64,000 nt of DNA from Raja brachyura (taxonomy: Eukaryota): contig OY740781.1 of assembly GCA_963514005.1 (NCBI GenBank), forward strand, positions 59,086,001 through 59,150,000, read 5' to 3'. This document shows, in pieces, positions 2,915 to 63,975 of the stretch. Both the position numbers and the translations under genes were made by a program. How positions within the stretch are numbered: the first letter of the stretch is position 1; each line of letters opens with the position of its first letter. The notes beneath the pieces are model-generated. The model saw only the letters and a list, made by a program, of their open reading frames with translations, was not told the DNA's origin and searched no databases.

Positions 2915-3863
2915 AGGGAGGTAAAAGACAATTTAGTCACATATGGACAAGATTAGGGGAGAATGACAAATTTTGTTCCCTCAAGATCATTAATAAACCA
3001 AATGAACTTTTATGATAATTTCGCAATTTCATGATCACCACTATTGATTATAGCTTTATCTTTTCCCAGATTTTTGTTTCATTAATTGAAAAGTAATCTC
3101 ACAGCTGCAGGGGTGGGATTTCAACTTAACAGTCAAGTTACTTCATCTCTGTGCAAAAACAGAACACTGTAAATATTGGAATGAATGCCATCACCATGAT
3201 ATGTTAACTCTATTTTATTCTCTACAGATGTTATTTTACTTGCAGAATATTTACAGCATTTTAACTTAAGTAAACATGACTTCCATGCTCTAATGTTGGT
3301 GTAAATACATCCCTAATTAATTTGCATTTTGTAGAAATGGATTTATTGCCAGAAATTGTAAGGCCATATAGCGGAACTGAATAGCTGCCTCAATAGTTTG
3401 TGCTGGCAATTATTAACAAGCTCAAGAATTAAAATGGATGTGGCCAGTGATTCAGAATTCAGCCATAAAACCGCATTAGATTTGGACTTCCCAAACCAGT
3501 ACTTCTAAAGACAGAGTTGTGGAACTTACTGACTGAATCTTGCCCATCACACCGGATCCCTTCTACCCCACTCCCTACCCCCCTGCACTCCACCACCCCT
3601 CCCTCCTTCTTTTCCACCACCCCTCCCTCCCTCTCTCTCTCCCCTCCTCCCTCCCTCATCCCTCTCTCCCCCCTCCCTCATCCTTCTCTCCCCCATCCCT
3701 CCATCTTCTCCCCCCATCCCCCATGCTCTGGGCCGGGCTGTGGTGCTCGCCCTCTCGACGTAATGCTGTGGTGCACCCCGGTGTCCCCGCCCGCGGGCAG
3801 GAGCCGCTGGAGCGCTGCCCATCCCGTGACCCGCGGTGTCCCTCGCCAGCGGGTAGACACCAG

Positions 3864-4349
3864 TGTAGTGGCCATTTGGCTTGTTTTGTGTGTCACTAAT
3901 TATGGCACGTGTCTTTAAATTTTAAACTGCCCGTTATATTGTGGGTGGGATTTATGACATATTTTAGGGCGTGTTTGGAGATACTTTTCTCACACAGAAG
4001 CTTAGTTTTTAGTTTTGTTTAGGACCAGCATGGGGAAGGTTTACCCTTTGACCATGCGGAGTGTAACGGACATACGAGGAGTTTTCTAACCTTTTAAGCG
4101 AAAAGCTGGAGTTCGATGAAGATTATAGTCTATGAGTCTGAAGAAGTTTGGATGCACCTTATTGTTTTTCATCAACTGTGAAAAATCTATTAATCAAAAG
4201 ACTGTGTTATGAAGATTTATCTGTGAAGAAGCTCTGAATGTCTCCGACGGAGAGCTGGCATGCGTATAATGACATTCTTCTTAACCATGTAGTCCACTTA
4301 GTGGCTAGAGGGAGTAATCTCTTGAACTATATAAAAATCTGCTGTTACA
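3864..4349 (+). repeat. 5' LTR of the BEL/Pao element (486 bp)
   Basis: tgtagtggccatttggcttgttttgtg ... aaaaatctgctgttaca, repeated with substitutions at 7252-7738. Confidence 0.9.
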
Positions 4350-4970
4350 TTAATTCAAAGGATACCTCCCATGGGGGGTGGAAGCCAGTCCCAGAGAGTG
4401 GGACAGAAGATTTGGCTAAGATCTTGAAAGAGGTTTTGGCCAGAAGACCGGTTCCAGCCAAGGAACTGAAGACAATAGATCTCGGCCAGAGATGGCCTCG
4501 AGGTCTATTGACAGCAACACAACTTATCTGAAGATCTAAAGACATTATCACAGAAATTGTGAGTAAAATCAACTTTTATTTCTTTGAATTTTGAAGCTGC
4601 AAACCTTTACCTTTATACAGGTTCTCTAAGAAGAGCCAGAAAGTGTTTTTCCACTGTCTGGAGATTCCAGCCAGTTCGATCTTGGATTGTTTTGCACTCT
4701 TAATATCACGCATTTTATTTTTTTCTATTCCTCTCTTCTTTCTTTCATTTATTCACTCTTTGGCTACACTACTTTGGTAGTCTAGGGGTTCCATCTTTGC
4801 ACATCTCACTTTTTCTCTTTCTTGCTTTTTCTCCTTTTTTTCCAATTCAAGCTAAAAAGTTAAAATTGAAGCTGTACAATAACTATAAATTTAAATGCCG
4901 TTGGTTCTATTTTTGTACATTTCCTTCTGATAAATAAAAATATTTTTAAAAAACAAAGGAAGTACGGTAC

Positions 4971-6700
4971 ATGTTAGAGCCACACTATGTGACTATTGAA
5001 AATCATAAACTAATTGCAACTAACAAAACTGAAGAAATATCAGAACCTACGAGTAGTAGTTTTGCTATCACAACCAGACCTGTGGAAAAGACAGATAGAA
5101 TGAAAGGAAAGGTATCTAGTAGCAAGCAAATAGTATTTTGTTTGTTATGTGATGAAGTTGATCACACCATAAGATGGTGTCGAAGATTCAAGATGAAAGA
5201 ATATGAAGAAAAGATGGATTTCTTGAAAGAGAAGGGAATCTGTTTTGGATGTTTGAAAAATGGACATATGGTGAGGGACTGTAAGAGTCCTATGATTTGT
5301 TATAAATGCAGGCAATATCATCCTGAAGCACTTCTCACTGAAGAAGAGCTATCAGAGCAAATAGAAGAGGATGAACCGGTGCAAATAGAAGAAGAGCTAT
5401 CAGAGCAAATAGAAGAATATGAACCAGAGCAAACAGAACAGAAGAAGAAGCCAGCTACGAGTGATGCTATCACCTCGCCTCAAGTAACTGCCCATGTTGG
5501 GGCCGGGGTAGAAGCTTGTAATTTTTCTATCTTACCAGTACAGGTAAGGAATAGTAAGACAAATACAGTGTTGCAAACATATGCTTTTTTGGATCACGTA
5601 GGTTGAACTACCTTTTGTCAGAAAACTTGACTAGAAGGCTGAACCAGGAGAAGAGACTGAGATTTGATTACGTACCATGACTAAAGATAAAGAGAGCAGG
5701 AGTCATTATATTACGAGTATAGAGATATCCAGTTTGGATGAAGATAAATGTATACCAATATCTGAAGTGTTTACACATGGAACTATGCCTGTTGGTCGTC
5801 AAAATGTACCAAGACATGAAGACTTGAAACAATGGCTTTACCTGAAGGATGTCAAGATAGCTGAAATAAATTATAGTGTTGATCTAGTTATCGGAACTTA
5901 TGAAAACATTGGAACCTATACAGATTGTTAGGAGCCATGGTGATGGACCGTATGCCTCAACAACACAACTTGGATGGGTTAACTTTGGCTCCTTGAAAAG
6001 GAATAATGAAAACGAGAATCGGAAGAACTATGCTATCATTGCAGTTAATCAAATATCTACTGAAAAATTAGAAAAGCCGGTGATGAAGCCATATAATCAT
6101 GACTTCAGGGAAAATACCAGCAAGGAAGCTGAAGAGATGTCGAATGAAGAGTTGAAGTTCATGGATATTATGAACCTCAGTAAAGATTGACAGACACTTT
6201 TGTCTACACTTACCTTTCAAACAAGAAAGTGTTAATCTGCCGAATAATCGTTGCATGGCAGAGCAAAACCACCAGAATTTGAAACTCAAGTTTGGCGAGA
6301 ATACTACATTTCTTGAAGTAAAAATCTCTTTGAAAAATAATTTCTACAAGGATGATTGCTTAAAATCCATATCTACTGAGCAGGAAGCTATTCAACCAGA
6401 AGAACATCTGATTTCCCTTTGCAATAAGGGAAGATTCACACTTTCCAAGTGGATAAGCAACAATTGTGAAAGCATTCCACCAGAGGATAGAGCAAAGAAA
6501 CCAGAGAGTTGGATTTGGATAGAGACAATCTGCCAATGGAAAGAGCATTGGGAGTTACGAATGTTGTACAACTGAAATATGTTAGCGCAAAAGAAAATCC
6601 AGCGAATGAAGTGTCCAGAGAACTGACAGTGAATCGCTTCTTAAGCGATAAGAGATGGATCAATTAACTAAAATCTCTCTGTAAGCCAGACAGAGAATGC
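4971..6700 (+). pseudogene. Degenerate BEL/Pao gag-protease(-pol remnant) coding region
   Basis: Three tandem zinc knuckles (CLLCDEVDHTIRWC, CFGCLKNGHMVRDC, CYKCRQYH), an aspartic-protease motif TYAFLD, then GDGPYA..TQLGWV, and RT remnants FYKDDCLKS and FTLSKWISN. The region has many stops, frameshifts and large deletions. Confidence 0.8.
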
Positions 6701-7060
6701 CCAAAGCATGAGTTGGGATTTAGAATCTCTGCTAATGATCCTTAAATTAAATCAAACCTAACGGTGAACTTTATTGATAAAAATCCTGTTATTCTCTCAA
6801 AAGATTTTCATGCTTCAACATTACTGTTACAACACATCCATTAGTTGATCGGACATGGAGGAAGATGTTTCATGCTGTCAAAGCTTTGAACTGTTATGTT
6901 TTGGACTATATACTGGTTGGTGTGCATGGTACAACTTTAAACTAAAACCAGTGTTTTAATAAGATTAATAATCTAGTTATATTTGTTTCTAGAAGGCAAA
7001 AGTAAAGATGGATGAGTCAATGAAGAATCCTGATTGTGGATATATAGTGCATGCTATTTT

Positions 7061-7132
7061 TCCTTGTTAGTATAGTGGTTAGTATCCCCGCCTGTCACGC
7101 GGGAGACCGGGTTTCATTTCCCCGACGAGGAG
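7061..7132 (+). tRNA. tRNA-Asp(GTC) gene copy, probably a pseudogene (T-arm substitutions), inside the BEL/Pao element
   Basis: 72-nt tccttgttagtatagtggttagtatccccgcctGTCacgcgggagaccgggtttcatttccccgacgaggag is near-identical to the vertebrate tRNA-Asp consensus. Acceptor and anticodon stems pair, with anticodon GTC at 7094-7096. GGTTCGATT has become GTTTCATTT. TTTTT follows at 7156-7160. Confidence 0.88.
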
Positions 7133-7251
7133 TCACGGGGTTCAAATTCTCTGACTTTTTGCTTTTGAAATATGTTAAGCCTTCATGGCTACTTTTTTGA
7201 TGTTTATTAGTAATTGCCTTGTTATATACTTGGAACAATTAGGGGCGGGTA

Positions 7252-7738
7252 TGTAGTGGCCATTTGGCTTGTTTTGTGTGTCATTAATTATGGCATGTGT
7301 CATTAAATTATAGACTGCCCGTTATATTGTGGGTGGGATTTATGACGTATTTTAGGGCGTGTTTGGAGCTACTTTTCTTGTGCAGAAACTTAGTTTTTAG
7401 TTTATTTTTGGACCAGCATGGGGAAGGTTTACCCTTTGATCATGCGGAGTGTAATGGAGACACGGGGTCTTTTAACATTTTAAGGGATAAGCTGGAGTTC
7501 AATGAAGATTATAGTGTATGAGTCGGAAGAAGTTTGGATGTACCTTATTGTTTTTCATCAACAATAAAGAATCTATTAATAAAAGACTGTGTTGTGAAGA
7601 TTTATCTGTAAAGAAGCTCTGAAGGTCCCCGACGGAGAGCTGGCATGCGTATAACAACATTCTCCTTAACTATGTAGTCAGTACACTTAGCGGCTAGAGG
7701 AAGTAATCACTTGAACGATATAAAAATCTGCTGTTACA
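7252..7738 (+). repeat. 3' LTR of the BEL/Pao element (487 bp)
   Basis: Copy of 3864-4349, preceded by the PPT and containing AATAAA at 7563-7568. Confidence 0.9.
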
Positions 7739-7743
7739 AGCAG

Positions 7744-8488
7744 GGCTCGGCACTGCACCCCCCCCCCCCCCCCCACCCCCATCTCCCTCTACCACTCTAT
7801 CTCCCTCCTCCGCATTTCCCTCATCCTTCCCTCATCCTCCTCCCCTCACTACCATTCCCTGCCCCAGAATCTACCCAGGTTGTAGAGCAGCACCAGGGCC
7901 TGGAACCCGGCCTGGTTCTCATACTCGGCCCCGCCCTGGCTGTAGGCAGCCGAAGCACTCATGGACCTGGGCGCTGACAGAGCTGGGCTCGCTGTGCCAG
8001 GGGCGGGGTGAAGGTGGAGGTCGGCTGAGCCAAAGCTGCCAGCAGAGCAGGAAGCAGAGGCTGTGCTGCAGGATGGCAGCTGCCAGGCATCCCCCGGGGT
8101 GCTGGTACACCTTAACCAGGCCCAGGGCTTGGGCACGACTGCCGCCCTCGGGACAACTCCCGCCCTCAGCTCGCCTGCCGCCTGGGCTCTAGCCCAGGCC
8201 CTGACTTCATCTCTGGGCTCAGTCCTTGGTCGCCAACCTGACGATGCCCCTTCCTGAATGACAGGTGATGAGCCCAATCTGCGTGGCGGCGACTGACACC
8301 AATCTGCGCATGTGCGGTTTTTACGATTTTTACACCTCAATAACTTTTTTAATATATAATTGATCGGATTGAAACTTGTTGCACTCGCAGCGTAGGAGAA
8401 CGGTGAGTAAGCTGGTAAAACATTATAGCGCTATCACATACTGTTTTGGCTTAAATAGAAAAACCCCGCAAACAGGAAGAGCACAAGA
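7744..8488 (-). mobile_element. GC-rich repeat, possibly a non-autonomous Helitron-family copy that the BEL element inserted into (left part ~3540-3858)
   Basis: Similar C-rich low-complexity and GC-rich sequence lies on both sides of the BEL element. The right end (revcomp tcttgtgctcttcc) loosely resembles the subterminal 5' region of the Helitron at 14134. The terminus is lost in the gap. Confidence 0.35.
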
Positions 8489-12890: not shown

Positions 12891-14504
12891 GGATGGGTAA
12901 ACTGATAGGACTGAAGGCTGATAAATCCCCCTGGGCCTGATGGTCTGCATCCCAGGGTACTCAAGGAGGAGGCTCGAGAAATCATGGATGCATTAGTGAT
13001 CATTTTCCAATGTTCTGTGGATTGGAGAATAGTTGATGTTATTCCACATTTTAAGAAAAAGAGGGAGAGAGAAAGCAGGAAATTATAGACATGTTAGCCT
13101 GACATAGGTGGAGTCTGGAGTCAATTTTTAAAGATGCAATTATCATTATGCTGGAGTCAATTAATAAAGATGTAGTAGCAATGCATTTGGATAGCAGTAA
13201 CAGGATAGATCCAAGTAAGCATGGATTTATGAAGGGGAAATCTTGCTTGACTAATCTTGAATTTTTTGAGGATGTAACAAGTATAATGGATAAGGGAGAG
13301 CTTTCAGAAAGGGAGAGCTATCTGGACTTTCAGAACACCTTTGATAAGGTCCCACACAGGAGATTAGTGGGCAAAATTAGAGCACATGGTATTGGGGGTA
13401 GGCTATTGACATGGATAGAAAATTGGTTGGCAGACAGGAAATAAAGAGTAGGAATTAACGTGTCCATTTCAGAAAGGCAGGTGGTGACTAGTCGGGTGCT
13501 GCAGGACTTGTTGCTGGGACCACAGCTGTTTACAATATATATATATGAATGATTTAGATGAAGGAATTAAAAGTAACATTGGCAAATTTGCAGATGACAC
13601 AAAGCTGGGTGGCAGTGCGAACTGTGAAGAGAATGCAGGGTGACTTGGATAAGTTGGGTGAGTGGGAAGATGCTTGGCAGATGCAGTATAATGTGGATAA
13701 ATGTGAGGTTATCCCCTTTGGTGGCAAGAACAAGAAGGCAGATTATTATCTGAATTGTGTCACATTAGGAAAAGGTGAAGTGCAACGAGACCTGAGTGTC
13801 CTTGCACATCAGTCACTGAAAATAAGCATGCAGGTGAAGCAGGCAGTGAAGAAAGCTAATGGCATGTTGGTCTTCATAATGAGAGGATTTGAATATAGGA
13901 GCAAGGAGGTCCTGCTGCAGTTGTACACGGCCCTGGTGAGACTGCATTTTGAGTATTGTGTGCAGTTTTGGTCTCCTAATTTGAGGAAGGACATTCATGC
14001 TATTGAGGGAGTGCAGCGTAGGTTCACCAGGTTAATTCTCGGGATGGAGGGACTGTCATATGATGAAAGATGAAATGAGTGAGGTTTATATTGACTGGAA
14101 TTTACAAGGATGAGAGGGGATCTTGTAGGAACATCTATATTACTAAAAGTAAGATCTTGACCGCTTTTAACTCACTGCAATATGATTTCCGAGAGAATGC
14201 CGCCACTTACAGCTGTCATTTTTGGCCACCTCGCTCAGAGACCCCCTCCACCAGACTGGACTGGAGGATTTTTCTCATCGATGAAAAATCAGAGATATAT
14301 TAATGTATTAGAAACATTCACCATTCTCTCTGCTGCCCCTGCTGGTGGGAGGGGGGAGGGACTATAAAACCTGGAAGTGGTGCACCTCACTAGGTCTCTG
14401 CAAGATGGAGGAAGCGAGAGTGTCACGTCTCTCTGAGCTCTGACTAACACTGAACACATGTCCACTCAAATGTGAGTGCCCTTAATGTGGTTTGAAAATA
14501 AAAA

Positions 14505-15432
14505 TATGGTTACTTTGGAATGCTGCACTGCAAAAAAAGGCTGTTGATGGCAGTGGTAACTGCTTTTGAAAGGCTGCACTGCAAAAAATTGGCTGTTGTT
14601 GGTGGTGGTAACTGCTTTTAAATGGCTGCAATGCAACAAAAACAATGGCTGTTGGTGGTGGTAACTGCTTTGAAAGGCTGCACATTGAAAAATAATGGCT
14701 GTTGTTGGTGGTGGTAACTGCTTTGAAATGCTGCACTGCAGAAAAAATGGCTGTTGTTGGTGGTGGTAACTGCTTTGAAAGGCTGCACTGCAAAAAAAAT
14801 GGCTGTTGTTGGTGGTGGCAACTGCTTTGAAAGGCTGCACTACAAAAAAATGGCCGTTGTTGGTGGTCGTAACTGCTTTGAAAGGCTGCACTGCAAAAGA
14901 AAATGGCTGTTTTTGGTGGTGGTAACTGCTTTGAAAGGCTGTACTGCAAAAAAAATGCCTGTTGTAGGTGATGGTAACTGCTTTAAATGGCTGCACCGGA
15001 AAAAAATGGCTGTCGGTGGTGGTGGTAACTGCTTTGAAAGGCTGTACTGCAAAAAAAAGCCTGTTGTTGGTGGTGGTAACTGCTTTGAAAGGCTGCACTG
15101 CAAAAAGAATGGCTGTTGTTGGTGATGGTAACTGCTTTGAAAGGCTACACTGCACAAAAATAGATGGTTGTTGGTGGTGGTAACTGCTTTTAAAAGGCTG
15201 CACTGCAAAAAAAAAATGGGTATTGTTGTTGGTGGTAACTGCTTTGAAAGGCTGCACTGCAACAAAAAAATGGCTGTTGTTGATGGTGCTAACTACTATA
15301 AAGGCTGCACTGCAACAAAAAATGGTTGTTGTTGGTGGTGGTAACTGCTTTGACAGGCTGCACTACAAAACAAAATGGCTGTTGTTGGTGGTGGTAACTG
15401 CTTTGAAAGACTGCATGGCAACAAAAAAATGA
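14505..15432. repeat. Minisatellite, ~52-bp unit, about 17-18 copies
   Basis: Unit tggctgttgttggtggtggtaactgctttgaaaggctgcactgcaaaaaaaa. Confidence 0.95.
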
Positions 15433-15440
15433 AATGGCAG

Positions 15441-15678
15441 GAAACTGCACTTGAGTTTGGTGGCCCTGCACCCTGCTTGCAGTGGTATGAAACTGCACTT
15501 AAATTCTATGGCCTTGCAGCCTGCTTGAAGTGGTCGGAAACTGCACTTGAATTTGGCGGCCTTGCACCCTGCTTGAAGTGGCTGGAAACTGCACTTGAAT
15601 TCGGTGGCCTTGCACCCTGCTTGAAATGGTAGGAAACTGCATTTGAATTTGGTTGCCTTGCACCCTGCTTGAAATGGA
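15441..15678. repeat. Minisatellite, 48-bp unit, about 5 copies
   Basis: gaaactgcac recurs at 15441, 15489 and 15537 and onward. Unit gaaactgcacttgaatttggtggccttgcaccctgcttgaagtggtag. Confidence 0.92.
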
Positions 15679-45794: not shown

Positions 45795-47030
45795 CAAGAC
45801 AACAATGAAGAATGTTTTATTGTCATATGTCCCAGATAGAACAATGAAATTCTTACTTGCTGCCACGCAAGAGAATATGTAATCATAATAAATAATATAA
45901 CAAAAAATCAGAAAAAAAGAACAAACAATAACAGTGCAATAATAATAATTGACAATAGGTGCAGGATTAGGCCACATGGTCCTTCAAGCCAGCATGGCCA
46001 TTCAATATGATCATGGCTGATCATTCACAATCAGTACCCCTTTCCTGCCTTCTCCCCATATCCCCTGACTCTGCTATCTTCAAGAGCCCTATCTGGCTCT
46101 CTCTTGAATGTTTCCAGAGAACTGGCCTCCACTGCCCTCTGAGGCAGAAAATTCCACAGACTCACAACTCTCTGTGTGAAAAAGTGTTTCCTCATTTCAG
46201 TTCTAAATGGCTTACCCCTTATTCTTAAACTGTGGCCCCTGGTTCTGGACTCCCCCCAATATCGGGAACATGTTTCCTGCCTCTAGTGTGTCTAAACCCT
46301 TAATAATCTTATATGTTTCAATAAGATACCCTCTCATCCTTCTAAACTCAGCCGCTCCATTCTCTTAGCATATGACAGTCCCACCATCCCGGGAATTAAT
46401 CTTGTAAACCTACATTGCGCTCTCTCAATAGCAAGAATGTCCTTCCTCAAATATGGAGACCAAAACTGCACACAATACTCCAGGTGTGGTCTCACTAGGG
46501 CTCTGTACAACTGCAGAAGGACCTCTTTGCTCCTACACTCAACTCCTCTAGTTATGAAGGCCAGCATGCCATTCGCTTTCTTCACTACCGGCTGTACCTG
46601 CATTGTCTGATGAACTAGAACCCCCAGATTATTAGACTAATAATAATAGTCTATTGTAGTTCATAGCTTATGAAGTTGTAGTGTTTAATAGCCTGATAGC
46701 TGTAGGGAAGAAGCTGTTCCTGAAACTGGACATTACAGTTCTCCGGCTCCAGTACCTTCTTTCCAATGGCAGTGGTGAAATGAGTGTGTGGCCAGTATGT
46801 TGTGGGTCTTTGATGATGTTGGTTGCCATTTTGAGGCAGTGACCATGATAGATTCCTTTGATGGTGCGGAGGTAGGAGCCGGTGATGGCCTGGGCAGTGT
46901 TTACAACTACAGTTTTTGCAGTCTTTTCCAATCCTGGACGTTCAAGTTGCTGAACCAGGCCACGATGCAACCAGTCAGTATGCTCTCTACTGTACACATG
47001 TAGAAGTTCAAGAGAATCCCCTTGAGTAAC
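45795..47030 (-). mobile_element. Rex/Babar-like LINE 3' end, interrupted by a CR1 (45945-46630)
   Basis: Minus peptides VESILTGCIVAWF..RLQK and NIIKDPQHTGHTLISPLPLERRYWSRRTVMSSFRNSFFPTAIRLLN. The 3' tail (tttattgtcatatgtccc..acaatgaaattctt) lies at 45795-45945. Confidence 0.75.
45945..46630 (-). mobile_element. CR1 LINE 3' end
   Basis: MQVQPVVKKANGMLAFITRGVECRSKEVLLQLYRALVRPHLEYCVQFWSP plus the CR1 tail. Confidence 0.88.
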
Positions 47031-50723: not shown

Positions 50724-52400
50724 TGCCTATCCTGACTAAAATTATAAAATGGTAATTATTAAATATAAATAGTAACGGCATGGGAGAGTTATGCCTACCT
50801 AAGAGATCGATCTCTTAAGTAGGCATAATTCTCCGTGCCTTTCATCCGCAGTGCATGTAACATGCGAAGGTTTGTGCAGCCCATCTGCCGTTAACGCTGC
50901 TTCAAGCCATCAATTTCCAGGGGACTGAAGGCGCTGAAATTCTGCCTTTGCAGTGCTGTGCATGCGCAGCAGCATACTGCGCATGCGCAGGGCAAGTTTC
51001 TTGGCAGGTTTTTCAAACATGGATTGCCATTATCTTAAGAATATCTTAAGAAACAAAGAGAGAAGAATGGAGTTCATGTACAAATGATGTGGTAAGTCGA
51101 CTTCTTGGTGCTATATGTTTTTTAATTTCCCGGCAATGAAGACGTTATTTTTTACCCAAAAATAATGCACAAAAATTTACATGTGTCTTGGAAGCCGAAG
51201 TTGGAAGGTTGTTAGCTAAGAATGATAGACTTGGCTATCCTTCAGTACAGCAACATCAAGAATGATGTTGTTGTACTAATGGACAGCCAAGTCTACCCCT
51301 CATTGCTGGCAGCTGATGGGAAGCGGCTATAAAAGGACAGCGCCGCTGGGGAGGGGAGAAGGAGGGGGTCAGGGAGCGTACCAGCAACTCACTTGCCGCA
51401 ACATTCCTGGCGTGGAGCCACCGCATTGTGGCCGGGGTGAGAAGTAGCTCGGGTGGCTGCGAGCGGCCGCCGGGAACGGACAGCTCAGTTGGCTGCGACC
51501 GGCCGCCACCTCAGCTCCTTCTGCCTCCCCCCGCTCACCTCTGGCAATCCTCTCCATCTGAAAACCTATCTCCTGCCGCTCGCCAGCCTCACTAATGTCA
51601 GCCGCTTCCCGCATATCCTTAAATTCCGACAGCACGATCAAGGGACCAATTGAGGTTACTTGGCTGTCGGAATTTAAGGATTTGCAGGAAGCGGCTGACA
51701 TGAGCGAAACCGGCGAGCGGCAGGTGAGAGATGTTCAGACGGAGAGCACTGCCAGAGGTGAGCGGGCAGGTAGAAGGCGCTGAGATGGCATCCGCTGTCC
51801 GGTCCCAGCAGCCACTGGCAGCCACCCGAGCTACTTCTCTCCCCGCAGCAGTGGTGAGTGCGGGAATTACTGGCATGATCCCCAACCCCCTCCTTCTCAA
51901 TGCTCCTGCCCTGCCTGCAACTCTACCCCTGACCAGACGCCCCACACGCTGTGAAAGGAACTCTCCCCCCAATTAGTACCTTGAGTAAGTATTGTCTTTC
52001 AATAAGATCACAACTGATTCAACTTGTCCCAGTGATCTCCCTTTTTTCCCCACCATCTCTCCACCTGCCGTCACCCTCCACCCCCCCATCTATTCAGTAA
52101 TTCAGAATGAAGGAGATTTGGAAGCCTTGGGCAAATTGCTTTCTTTATTTTTATTTTTTGTGCGTGAGAAATTCTATGTCCCCCCAGCATTCTTTCAAAA
52201 TTTAGCAACTCAAAATGGGGGTGCGTTTTCATTTCCGGGAAATACGGTACTTTACTAAGAGAATTGGGATTTCGAAGACTTTATAAAAGTCAACTGACAA
52301 CTTACGGAGAGAACAATCTGCGCATGCGCGGTTTAAGATTTTTTTAAAGCCGACTGACTGCCTACCCTGAGTAATTACTCAAGGCACGTGCCTGGTAAAT
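50724..52400. mobile_element. Unclassified non-coding fold-back element with multiple internal palindromes
   Basis: Sits between two parts of a minus-strand CR1. Similar direct end motifs actgcctatcctgact / actgcctaccctgagt. Hairpins at 50777-50839, 51226-51295 and ~51365-51935. Confidence 0.55.
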
Positions 52401-52402
52401 AG

Positions 52403-53180
52403 CTGCGGTCCCAGCACTGAGCCTTGCGGTACCCCACTAGTCATTGCCTGCCATTCTGAAAGGGACCTATTAATCCCTACTCTTTGTTTCCTGTCTGCCA
52501 ACCAATCTTCTATCCATGTCAGTACCCTACCCCATGTGTGGGACCTTATCAAATGCTTTCTGAAAGTCCAGGTACACTACATCCACTGACGCTCCCTTGT
52601 CCATTTTCCTAGTTACATCCTCAAAAAATTCCAGATTAGTCAAGCATGATTTACCCTTCGTAAATCCATGCTGACTCGGACCGATCCTGTTACTGCTGTC
52701 CAAATAGAAACATAGAAACATAGAAACATAGAAACATAGAAATTAGGTGCAGGAGTAGGCCATTCGGCCCTTCGAGCCTGCACTGCCATTCAATATGATC
52801 ATGGCTGATCATCCAACTCAGCATCCTGTACCTGCCTTGTCTCCATATCCTCTGATCCCCTTAGCCATAAGGGCCACATCTAACTCCCTCTTAAATATAG
52901 CCAATGAACTGGCCTCAACTACCCTCTGTGGCAGAGAGTTCCGGAGTCTCACCACTCTGTGAAAAAAGTCTTTCTCATCTCGGTCTTAAAGGGTTTCCCC
53001 CTTATCCTTAAGCTGTGACCCCTTGTCCTGGACTTCCCCAACATCGGAAATGTGCCATTATTTCATCTTTTATAATTGACTCCAGCATCTTCCCCACCAC
53101 TGATGTCAGGCTAACTGGTCTATAATTCCTTGTTTTCTCTCTTCCGCCTTGCTTTAAAAGTGGGATAACATTAGCTACCC
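52403..53180 (-). mobile_element. CR1 RT fragment with a nested younger CR1 3' end (52704-53050) carrying a (CATAGAAA)n tail
   Basis: Minus peptide SQHGFTKGKSCLTNLEFFEDVT..YLDFQKAFDKVPH. Repeat atagaaac x4-5 at 52704-52742. Confidence 0.85.
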
Positions 53181-53185
53181 ATCAT

Positions 53186-54136
53186 CATTTATCATTTGCA
53201 AAGTCAGCATGGATTTACAAAAGGTAAATCATGTCTGACGAATCTTATAGAATTTTTCGAGGATGTAACTAGTAGAGTGAATAAGGGGGAACCAGTGGAT
53301 GTGTTATATCTGGACTTTCAGAAGGCTTTTGACAAGGTCCCACATAAGAGATTAGTATACAAATTTAAAGCACACGGTATTGGGGGTTCAGTATTGATGT
53401 GGATAGAGAACTGGCTGGCAGACAGGAAGCAAAGAGTAGGAGTAAACGTGTACTTTTCAAAATGGCAGGCAGTGACGAGTGGGGTACCGCAAGGCTCAGT
53501 GCTGGGACCCAGCTATTTACAATATATATTAATGATTTGGACGAGGGAATTGAATGCAACATCTCCAAGTTTGTGGATGACATGAAGCTGGGGGTAAGTG
53601 TTAGCTGTGAGGAGGATGCTAGGAGGCTGCAATAAGGAGACTTGGATAGGCTGGGTGAGAGGGCAAATGCATGGCGGATGCAGTATAATGTGGATAAATG
53701 TGAGGTTATCCACTTTGGTGGCAAAAACAGGAAAGTAGACTATTATCTGAATGGTGGCCGATTAGGAAAAGGGGAGATGCAACGAGACCTGGGTGTCATG
53801 GTACACCAGTCATTGAAAGTAGGCATGCAGGTGCAGCAGGCAGTGAAGAAAGCGAATGGTATGTTGGCATTCATAACAAAAGGATTTGAGTATAGGAGCA
53901 GGGAGGTTCTACTGCAGTTGTACAGGGTCTCGGTGAGACCACACCTGGAGTACTGCGTACAGTTTTGGTCTCCTAATCTGAGGAAAGACATTCTTGCCAT
54001 AGAGGGAGTACAGAGAAGTTTCACCAGACTGATTCCTGGGATGTCAGGACTTTCATATGAAGAAAGAATGGATGGACTCGGCTTGTACTCGCTAGAATTT
54101 AAAAGATTGAGGGGGGATCTTATAGAAACTTACAAC
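53186..54136 (+). mobile_element. CR1 LINE RT region (frameshifted)
   Basis: QHGFTKGKSCLTNLIEFFEDVT..VTSGVPQGSVLGP, ISKFVDDMKL and WRMQYNVDKCEVIHFG. Confidence 0.92.
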
Positions 54137-54690
54137 ATTTTTTTTTTGTTTTTGTTTATATTATTAGAAGTTAATACAGTACAAAACAATATAGTGGCAC
54201 CTAATTTTAGGTGCCAGCTATGTTATAACATAATACATTCTATGTACAACCTCTAGTTTTATGTTTTTGAAAAGGAAGTAAAAAAAGATAGAGAGAAGAA
54301 AATGAGGAAAAATAGATAGTAGAAAATAGAAAAACGTGAAGTGTGTATATAAGAAAAGAGAAAGTAGAAAGTAGAAATAGGAGAAAAAGACCCTGAAAAA
54401 AGAAAAATTTCTAATCTTTGTTTGGAGATGTAATTCTATCCATGACCTGACCTGAAATCAGTAATCTTTACGGTGCTGCTGTATCACATGTTTCCAAAAT
54501 GTCGATGAAAGGGGACCAACTCCTTAAGAATTGGTCATATTTATCTATTAGGCGGAGTCTCATTTCTTCAAGGTGAGCTATGTCCGTCATATTACTAATC
54601 CACATTTTAATAGTTGGTACAGCTGTATTTTTCCAAAATTTAAGTATCAATTTCTTTCCAATTATTAACCCATATTAAACAATATGGGTT
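54137..54690 (-). mobile_element. L1-clade LINE 3' end (ORF2 C-terminus, 3' UTR, poly-A)
   Basis: Minus peptide ILKFWKNTAVPTIKMWISNMTDIAHLEEMRLRLIDKYDQFLRSWSPFI resembles fish-type L1 ORF2 ends. Poly-T on the + strand at 54138-54153. Confidence 0.7.
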
Positions 54691-61750: not shown

Positions 61751-63084
61751 ATTTTGATAATCATATTTTGGTGAAAAAATTAGTACATATAAAATTGGAA
61801 AATCTAGATGGATGGGGGGGGGGGGGGGGGAGGAAGAGGGCATAACATTTCCAGATGATCCTTTGACCAGATGCCTTGTCTGATCTACTGTATTGTTCTC
61901 TCAGATGAACACAATAGTTCCCTGGCACTATTGAAGGAAGAGCAGGGAAAAACTCCCAATTTTCTGTCGGCAGCAATAATCATCCATCAGTTAATATCAC
62001 AAACCAACAAGGTGTCTGGCTACCATCACAATGCTGTCTGTGGCATTGATGTCAAGTTAATTCAAGCAAGGCATATTAAGTTTAATGTTGTATGAATGAG
62101 CATGGTGAAGTACAGGTACAATGAAAATACTGTCTCTTAATGTATGCAAATTGGATGTAGTGTTTTTTGATTACCTACTTTTCAAAAATTGAATATTGCC
62201 TGCAAAGTATTTAGGAAATTCCTAATGTCATGAAAGCTGCTATATAACTGTCCATTTTTCTTATCTTTACTTTCTGCTTTAGATTTTGTTTCCAATTTTA
62301 ATCACTCCATACATTCAGTTTAATTATTATTAACTAATCTGAACATTAAATTAAATTGGATTAAAACTGATTAGGGAATTACTTTTATATTAGAGGATTC
62401 AAGAAAAATGGAACTTAACCAGTGCTTTCTGTTCAGATAGATTGTTTGAATGTGAAAACACACCATAACCTTTCTTCTGAAAATCTTCATAATTTGGTTA
62501 AAATTCACATAGAAAAAAACACTATCTGACGTGCTTGAATTTCTGGTTATTGCTCAAAAAAATAATTCCTGTTGGTACTGTTAAACAGATTATACTGTGG
62601 AAGTGGCAAAGTGGAAAGAATCTTTCCCTTAGCGACTTTAAAAAAATATCCATTTCATTGTCTAATCTCTACATTAAAATACACATCATTAATTTGAATT
62701 GTGTATTGGGTACATCAAATTGTTGGGTTGCACTTTCTAGTGGAAAGGCATTTAATGGCATATGCAACAACCTCTTAGAGGAATAGTTTTTAATTTATGT
62801 TTTAACTTTAAGCTTCTCAATGATTTAAAAGTTTTATAGGGTACTCCTGTTTGATCAAGTATTGGAAATCAATCCATCCTTTGGAACAACTGGTTTACTT
62901 ATGGAAGCTGTGATTTAATTGTGTTGTGATTAATTGTGTCAATGCATTAGACCTGTATTATGATTGTATTTCATTTCCTTTCAATTGCATTTGCAAAGAT
63001 TATTGTACATATTGGGCCGTGGGCCTTGGTTGCTTGGAGGTGCGGAAGAGAGAGATAATATAAAATTAAGCCACAAATAAATAA

Positions 63085-63975
63085 ACAATAGGAGCAGGAG
63101 TAGGCCCTTCGAGCCAGCACCGCCATTCAATGTGATCAAGGCTGATCATCCACAATCAGTACCCCGTTCCTGCCTTCTCCCCATATCCCTTGACTCCACT
63201 ATATTTAAGAGCTCTATCTAACTCTCTCTGGAAAGCATCCAGAGAACTGGCCTCCACTGCCCTCTGAGGCAGAGAATTCCGCAGACTCGCAACTCTGTGT
63301 GAAAATGTATTTCCTTATCTCTGTTCTAAATAACTTGCACCTTATTCTTATACTGTGGCCTCTGGTTCTGGATTCTCCCAACATCAGTAACATGTTTACT
63401 GCCTCTAGCGTGTCCAAACCTTTAATAGTCTTATGTTTCAATAAGATCCCCTCTCATCCTTCTAAATTCCAGAGTATACAAGCCCAGCAGCTCCATTCTA
63501 TCATCATAAGACAGTCCCGCCATCCCGGGAATTAACCTTGTGAACCTATGCAGCACCGCAATACCAAAAATATCCTACCTCAAATTTGGAGACCAAAACT
63601 GCACACAATACTCCAGGTATAGTCTCACTAGGGCCCTATACAACAGCAGAAGGACCTCTTTGCTCCAATACTCAACTCCTCTTGTTATCAAGGCCAACGT
63701 GCCATTTGCTTTCTTCACTGCCAACTGTACCTGCATGCTTACTCTCAGTGACTGATGAACAAGGATCCCCCAGATCCCGTTGTACTTCCCATTTTCCCAA
63801 CTTTACACCATTTAGATAATAGTCTTCCTTTGTGTTTTTGCCACCAATGTGGATAACCTCACATTTATCCACATTAAACTGCATCTGCCCTCACAAACCT
63901 GTCCAAGTCACCCTGCAACCTCATAGCATTCTCCTCAAAGTTCACACTGCCATCCAGCTTTGTGACATCAAACAA
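63085..63975 (-). mobile_element. CR1 LINE 3' portion
   Basis: Minus peptides MQFNVDKCEVIHIGGKN and IKGLDTLEAVNMLLMLGESRTRGHSIRIR, plus the CR1 tail. Confidence 0.9.

Follow-up and report, generated by a model that had tools for sequence, protein, structure and literature searches.

Cer7 of C. elegans, a BEL/Pao element of the Tas clade, is said to encode a tRNA-like sequence that reportedly matches its PBS, unlike the elements described here, whose tRNA-derived sequence has no PBS complementarity. Lentiviruses and Ty1 carry a central PPT, a second plus-strand priming sequence upstream of the PPT, and in Tf1 the leader pairs with the element's own LTR-derived RNA; neither arrangement involves a tRNA-derived sense sequence, and their likeness to the present elements is one of sequence pairing only. 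Replication of the Belpaoviridae is poorly understood and is assumed to be Gypsy-like, and the ICTV profile gives an 18-nt PBS for tRNA-Arg or tRNA-Gly (PMC8742986). The Sinbad group was later named the Sailor lineage (PMC6238403). As described in PMC3118150, PMC6238403, and PMC8742986, Sinbad/Sailor elements show the same order of Gag zinc knuckles, DUF1759, Peptidase_A17, H2C2-integrase, and DUF5641 as the relatives analysed here, and share TG...CA LTRs, a 5-bp TSD, and a PPT with the element reported below.

tRNA sequence inside LTR elements has precedent in Helenus and cqgypsy_1. Helenus TRIMs (TRIMp3, PMC10886601) likewise contain tRNA-derived sequence, mostly non-functional tRNA and not complementary to the PBS; they are short and non-coding, are moved by Gypsy/Copia, and keep the A and B boxes of a tRNA that lies inside both LTRs, whereas the tRNA reported here lies in the 3′ UTR of coding BEL/Pao elements and the part that is kept is the 3′ end with CCA. 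The Culex element cqgypsy_1 (PMC3286476) holds whole tRNA copies with CCA, credited to reverse transcription of mature tRNA, in the form of a tRNA-Lys/Glu dimer that occupies the PBS in a single Gypsy element and comes with a 26-nt duplication; in BEL/Pao, by contrast, a single isotype recurs at the 3′ end across phyla. The term tRNA does not occur in the available portions of PMC3118150, PMC6238403, PMC8556966, PMC554778, and PMC2774666, and our nucleotide motifs have no match in the accessible supplements of PMC8556966 (11 of 14 text files), PMC6238403 (4 of 5 files), and PMC8220671. A literature search outside Repbase and subscription journals returned no published description of a tRNA-Asp sequence after pol in BEL/Pao.

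Here we describe such a sequence in a 64-kb stretch of Raja brachyura DNA (the window) and in relatives of the element that carries it. Our main reading, to which we give roughly even odds (about 0.5), is that Sinbad/Sailor-group BEL/Pao elements carry, after pol, a sense piece of mature tRNA-Asp with CCA that was captured and whose 3′ end has been kept for plus-strand priming.

The element in the window (Table 1) has the protein order of BEL/Pao, two TG...CA LTRs, a short TSD, and a PPT. Its LTRs are identical at 439 of 491 aligned columns (K2P 0.098), the flanks form a 5-bp TSD with one mismatch, and the PPT is an ordinary G-rich tract, distinct from the tRNA end. The internal pieces match, in order, relatives bearing PF03564, PF05380, PF17921, and PF18701; the longest ORF (4950-5606) matches BEL/Pao polyproteins, the best being a little-skate protein at 50% identity, and the last pol piece matches relative P0185 at 15 of 27 residues, a low score taken alone. 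Missing are the Gag start, the cores of RT and integrase, and the greater part of both RNase H/Peptidase_A17 and DUF5641. The BEL/Pao identity proposed in a preliminary description of this DNA thus stands on ordered matches to BEL/Pao Pol relatives, and the copy is, as also proposed, dead, its gag-pol broken by frameshifts, stops, and internal deletions. The window holds no second copy of the element family.

Table 1. Coordinates of the element and its features within the 64-kb window
Feature	Position	Strand	Remarks
Left TSD, ACCAG	3859-3863	+	right copy AGCAG at 7739-7743, 4/5 identical
LTR element	3864-7738	+	3.9 kb with gag-pol remnants
5′ LTR, TG...CA	3864-4349	+	486 bp
Non-canonical leader	4350-4376	+	not complementary to tRNA-Asp; pairs with LTR ~4024-4052; candidate for self-priming
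gag-pol remnants, Sinbad-group BEL/Pao	4956-7015	+	frameshifts, stops, internal deletions
Last pol piece	6917-7012	+	matches Pol C-terminus; stop at 7013-7015
TATATA hexamer	7041-7046	+	15-20 nt upstream of tRNA; background-level, putative at most
tRNA-Asp(GTC) copy	7061-7132	+	20/21 pairs intact; T-arm damaged; A at position 68
Degenerate second copy of tRNA variable loop and T-arm	7129-7155	+	8/2000 shuffles; small hairpin before T-run
TCA	7133-7135	+	relatives encode CCA at same position
TTTTT run	7156-7160	+	terminator-like; 24 nt downstream of tRNA; common in element UTRs
PPT, AGGGGCGGGTA	7241-7251	+	adjoins 3′ LTR
3′ LTR	7252-7738	+	

Some further features of the element and its surroundings deserve mention in their own right. 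The copy has suffered several separate internal deletions yet kept both LTRs, the leader, the pol end, and the 3′ UTR, which suggests a non-autonomous derivative mobilised in trans. Within the LTR, a TATA-like box (4328-4333) lies about 20 nt from the 3′ end and AATAAA (7563-7583) about 150 nt upstream of that end, the reverse of the usual order. Pyrimidine-rich low-complexity tracts flank the element (3577-3695 and 7757-7866; 70% alike over 122 nt), and the element may have inserted into an older repeat. Elsewhere in the window, the minus strand of positions 1-2000 is GC-rich with overlapping ORFs of 172-279 aa, which by eye resemble the 5′ part of a DIRS-type retroelement; adjoining tandem arrays of 52-bp units (17.5 copies) and 48-bp units (5.2 copies) occupy 14513-15677; and related fragments at 13185-14073, 45948-46603, 52395-54256, and 63073-63889, some with RT-like ORFs, are presumably CR1/L2-type LINE ends.

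The tRNA-Asp(GTC) copy lies in sense orientation between the decayed pol and the PPT/3′ LTR, where the preliminary description had placed it, and both tRNA finders agree on it: ARAGORN calls it at 7060-7134 as the sole tRNA in the 64 kb, and Rfam RF00005 matches 7061-7132 (48.4 bits, E 2.7e-07), the only gathering-level Rfam match in the window. There is no second tRNA copy in the 64-kb window. The copy is nearer the pol stop than the PPT, starting 45 nt after the stop and ending 119 nt before the 3′ LTR. Judged as a type 2 Pol III gene, its cloverleaf and A box are intact, and the B box is broken in the window copy and in that of relative L004, with the T-stem closing pair broken and the T-loop departing from the Rfam consensus; these are the T-arm mutations noticed earlier. 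That no CCA is encoded holds literally, the qualification being that TCA follows the tRNA at the site of CC(A) in relatives. A target-site duplication around the tRNA is not significant (1614 of 2000 shuffles do as well), as the earlier observation of no obvious TSD had it, a CATG..CTA..TTT likeness being rejected as insignificant against shuffles, and no poly-A is present at the tRNA. The degenerate second copy that overlaps its end was first noticed by eye and then shuffle-tested; the small hairpin that it forms has a z of −2.2 (8 of 200 shuffles).

Scanning a collection of bacterial genomes with eight aligned relatives as the query yielded four BEL/Pao loci, L001-L004, evidently animal retrotransposon contigs present in four bacterial assemblies as host contamination; no BEL relatives were found in plasmid and phage collections. 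The 3′ UTR is present in three of the four (L002 lacks its 3′ end), and these three 3′ UTRs form the DNA sample for the tail feature. ARAGORN calls no gene and Rfam finds no match in L001-L004, including L004 2800-3300, and the L004 copy is detected by direct alignment only. Specifically, L004 2924-2986 aligns without gaps to tRNA positions 10-72 with 48 of 63 bases identical and scores 66, which 0 of 200 shuffles reach, the best of them scoring 30, while the other seven locus-strand tests are not significant (the closest at 10 of 200). This copy sits just past the stop of an uninterrupted pol and is followed by CCT; it is decayed, with 5 of 21 cloverleaf pairs broken, the anticodon changed, and the first nine positions lost. 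In L003, the segment 7011-7038 starts at the stop, matches the 3′ third of the tRNA, and continues with CCA (1 of 2000 shuffles when the 40 nt after the stop are considered, 6 of 2000 for the whole 3′ UTR). The 3′ UTR of L001 has no trace of tRNA-Asp (1053 and 759 of 2000 shuffles).

In both L003 and L004 the seven bases before the TG of the presumed 3′ LTR are the last seven of the tRNA with CCA, the LTR start being inferred weakly in L003, from a 7-nt match, and circularly in L004, a locus that has no second LTR. As a direct repeat, the tRNA-Asp end brackets the 3′ UTR (L003 7031-7037 and 7158-7164; L004 2983-2988 and 3232-3238), and the second repeat sits at the PPT position. Two other features of L004 lie nearby. 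A TGG-starting sequence at 3117-3135, in the 3′ UTR beyond the tRNA-Asp copy and an N gap, resembles a tRNA-His primer-binding site. A 239-aa ORF at 4231-4950, inside the presumed 2.1-kb LTR of this intact BEL/Pao element, has no Pfam match; by Atlas features and structure it is SGNH/GDSL-hydrolase-like, with nearest clusters mostly from molluscs and annelids.

These relatives bear directly on whether the window sequence is a genomic tRNA gene with a TATA box and terminator, that is, a working Pol III unit acting as supply, promoter, or insulator, which was the earlier interpretation and which we now consider quite improbable. The near-intact A-box region and cloverleaf in the window, the T5 run downstream, and a TATATA..GCAT string upstream of both the window and L004 copies are what such a unit would show, and the TATA-like and TTTTT sequences are indeed where they had been reported. 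But the upstream flanks of the two copies are not significantly alike (340 of 2000 shuffles; downstream, 544 of 2000), the hexamer and T-run occur at background level (in the 5′ UTR of the element itself, 26% of positions have the start of a T5 run within 30 nt), and the 3′ UTR of L004, as far as it is sequenced, is free of T5 runs. Moreover, relatives encode CCA, most have no A box at all, and the L004 copy is decayed beside an intact pol. A mature tRNA source is favoured because relatives encode CCA at the tRNA position, and these facts are better accounted for by a mature tRNA that was copied into an older remnant than by a gene taken from the genome. The window copy has little damage, of an amount that decay after insertion would produce (LTR K2P 0.098; 20 of 21 pairs), which suggests a young capture. 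The suggestion that the element may spread tRNA genes likewise loses ground: this is unlikely because the L004 tRNA has decayed, in pairs and anticodon alike, beside an intact pol. The preliminary description had also proposed examining relatives with a tRNA finder and for an intact B box; generic finders are blank there and the B box is broken, while direct alignment does recover the L004 copy.

A tRNA end close behind the stop predicts that Pol proteins which stop late will spell the tRNA 3′ end, and we tested this prediction on Pol C-terminal tails. In one frame the window tRNA spells FPDEES. Of the 150 top-ranked relatives of the L004 C-terminus, 118 have a recognisable end motif, and 7 of these 118 tails (35 of which have at least 12 residues) match the motif [FI]P.[EGK]EP, a pattern settled after inspection of this first set. 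With the pattern fixed beforehand, 21 of 114 tails (39 of them long) match in a second set of 119 new proteins. The motif is absent from backgrounds of 163,704 and 189,009 positions (0.004 expected), and no tail carries it without the final P. Because the final P can be spelled only with CC behind the discriminator base, the tails encode a CCA tail. Close relatives are among the tails counted, and the totals do not measure independent events; named hosts include the starfish, sea urchins, and sea anemone Acanthaster, Patiria, Strongylocentrotus, Diadema, and Actinostola. The result of a codon-aware scan that leaves out the CCA is weak, with scores of at least 16 in 2 sense tails versus 1 antisense tail; at a score of at least 15, 9 of 10 tails are placed on tRNA positions 50-58. 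In the fish clade nearest the window element, the motif occurs in 0 of 119 tails, only 17 of which reach at least 11 residues, and this count says little because most tails end at once and the window tRNA lies beyond the stop.

That the C-terminal peptide is conserved for a protein function, with the tRNA likeness arising by chance, is most improbable. All 28 motif tails share one frame, and two patterns for the other reading frames match no tail, as conservation of a peptide would have it; but the L003 motif follows the stop and is untranslated, the L004 and window sequences extend to the whole tRNA, and most relatives end before the motif. In sum over DNA and proteins, a sense tRNA-Asp piece with CC(A) is found in L003, L004, and the 28 Pol tails, and nearly the whole tRNA is found in the window and L004. 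Most carriers keep just a T-arm remnant and the 3′ acceptor strand, and most relatives with the feature retain only the last 25-30 nt of the tRNA. None of the element copies seen has an unaltered T-loop, which is either shortened or changed, and the best-kept part is the unpaired, purine-rich 3′ end with CC(A).

The base at tRNA position 68 is A in the window, L003, and L004, and A is likewise implied by 25 of the 28 motif tails, with G in the remaining 3. Among the full-text matches listed for four variants of the tRNA end, all 17 papers have G68 and none A68; they are mostly on mammalian tRNA, with one on Drosophila. Unless the host tRNA-Asp itself has A68, this base would link the window copy with the motif that the elements carry and would speak against a new, random retrocopy. 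A quick tree with SH-aLRT support only was built from 69 of 215 eligible integrase-DUF5641 rows, comprising the eligible motif rows and loci in full, alternate rows of the other invertebrates, and 16 chosen fish rows. It places the fish clade with L001 (SH-aLRT 98) apart from L003, L004, and the motif-bearing proteins; the window element, its own family represented by one copy, is placed outside the tree, from its likeness to P0002 and P0165. The feature therefore occurs in two distant clades that at least one negative separates, and it is either old and patchily lost or was captured more than once. By eye, integrase peptides of the fish and invertebrate relatives resemble six published families, all six of them listed as Sinbad in PMC3118150; the tree holds no named Sinbad references and does not separate Sinbad s.s., Sparrow, and Surcouf.

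Among the points against our main reading are that the window family is sampled by one copy, that L001, sister to its clade, is negative, that the PPT of the window element is not the tRNA end, that the DNA sample amounts to three 3′ UTRs, and that the codon-aware scan is weak. Alternatively, the whole tRNA in the window could be a one-off retroposed tRNA or tRNA-headed SINE, unrelated to the motif of the invertebrate clade: it is a single copy in the window, the L001 3′ UTR has no trace, a long distance in the tree separates the two clades, and cqgypsy_1 offers a precedent (PMC3286476). We regard this as improbable, since isotype, strand, and position match L003 and L004, A68 is common to all, a T-arm repeat adjoins the window copy, and neither a TSD nor poly-A accompanies it. 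A tRNA-derived SINE was rejected separately, because the hallmarks of one (a body, a LINE-like tail, an end of poly-A or repeats, a TSD, many copies) do not come together here, with copies counted within the window. Membership in Helenus/TRIMp3 was likewise rejected, the tRNA lying outside the LTRs of a 3.9-kb element with gag-pol remnants. For the L004 copy as a known Helenus LTR, 5 of 6 motifs are absent from the Helenus supplement and the sixth has one unrelated 9-mer match, by exact matching in which line breaks can hide matches. The earlier expectation that the tRNA belongs to the lineage, being neither a one-off nor a known SINE, is borne out by the tRNA end in L003, L004, and the Pol tails.

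The leader at the PBS position offers no counterpart to the PBS of the Belpaoviridae profile (PMC8742986). It lacks a TGG start and contains no 18-nt PBS of the ICTV kind, in an alignment run against tRNA-Asp only, consistent with its earlier designation as non-canonical; the absence of a canonical PBS leaves the protein-based BEL/Pao placement intact, and many members may deviate. No complementarity to tRNA-Asp or its trailer was found in the window leader (330 of 500 shuffles score as well). A PBS for tRNA-Asp (3′ end, internal, or trailer) was accordingly rejected for the window and L003, with a weak match in L004 (34 of 500). The tRNA copy does not supply the minus-strand primer, because the leader is not complementary to tRNA-Asp, and the idea of a primer supply, put forward earlier, fails for that strand. 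The window leader pairs with LTR positions ~4024-4052 and, in the second LTR, with 7412-7440, each time at −22 kcal/mol; 0 of 200 shuffles and 1 of 108 internal control 25-mers pair as well. The geometry of this pairing resembles Tf1 self-priming. With LTR ends placed by eye in the other loci, the pairing is not reproduced in L001 (13 of 40 shuffles) or L003 (97 of 100) and is marginal in L004 (3 of 40).

Taking the parts of our main reading separately, it is highly probable that the tRNA-Asp is lineage-wide and of mature-tRNA origin. That its 3′ end serves in plus-strand priming is plausible at somewhat less than even odds, and that the host tRNA-Asp itself is the plus-strand primer is doubtful. 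The proposed course of events would begin during minus-strand synthesis, when the reverse transcriptase could switch onto a packaged host tRNA-Asp at a common 3′ sequence and copy it into the element, on more than one occasion. The captured tRNA body would then decay, and the 3′ end would be retained as a cis-element, a plus-strand priming site acting either as a second PPT or as a landing site for the 3′ end of the host tRNA. We infer a role in priming because the last seven bases of the tRNA with CCA reappear ahead of the LTR in L003 and L004, and a plus-strand site is the most likely because host tRNA-Asp, having the same sense as the copy, can pair there with minus-strand DNA and not with element RNA.

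It is unlikely that the remnant, though lineage-wide, acts instead as RNA, its T-arm hairpin serving termination, stability, packaging, or processing by tRNA nucleases. The remnant follows the stop at 0 to 45 nt, and L003 keeps a G-run/C-run hairpin that the window has in repeated form, both of which an RNA role would accommodate; but the T-loop is altered in every copy while the unpaired 3′ end with CC(A) is the best kept, and the 3′ end recurs before the LTR in L003 and L004. Returning to plus-strand priming, a stronger version, in which Sinbad/Sailor elements prime the minus strand with their own RNA through leader-LTR pairing and the plus strand with the 3′ end of host tRNA-Asp, is a long shot.

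The tRNA-Asp end after pol is apparently an old and previously undescribed signal for element copying. Its 3′ end, kept across cnidarian, echinoderm, and probably vertebrate elements, offers a testable handle on DNA priming in a major aquatic lineage that lacks a canonical PBS. It also explains the recurring Pol C-terminal peptide, and some predicted tRNA-Asp genes in such genomes would be parts of retrotransposons. If true, the reversed use of tRNA would explain the repeated capture of whole tRNA with CCA at this exact site, from corals to skates.
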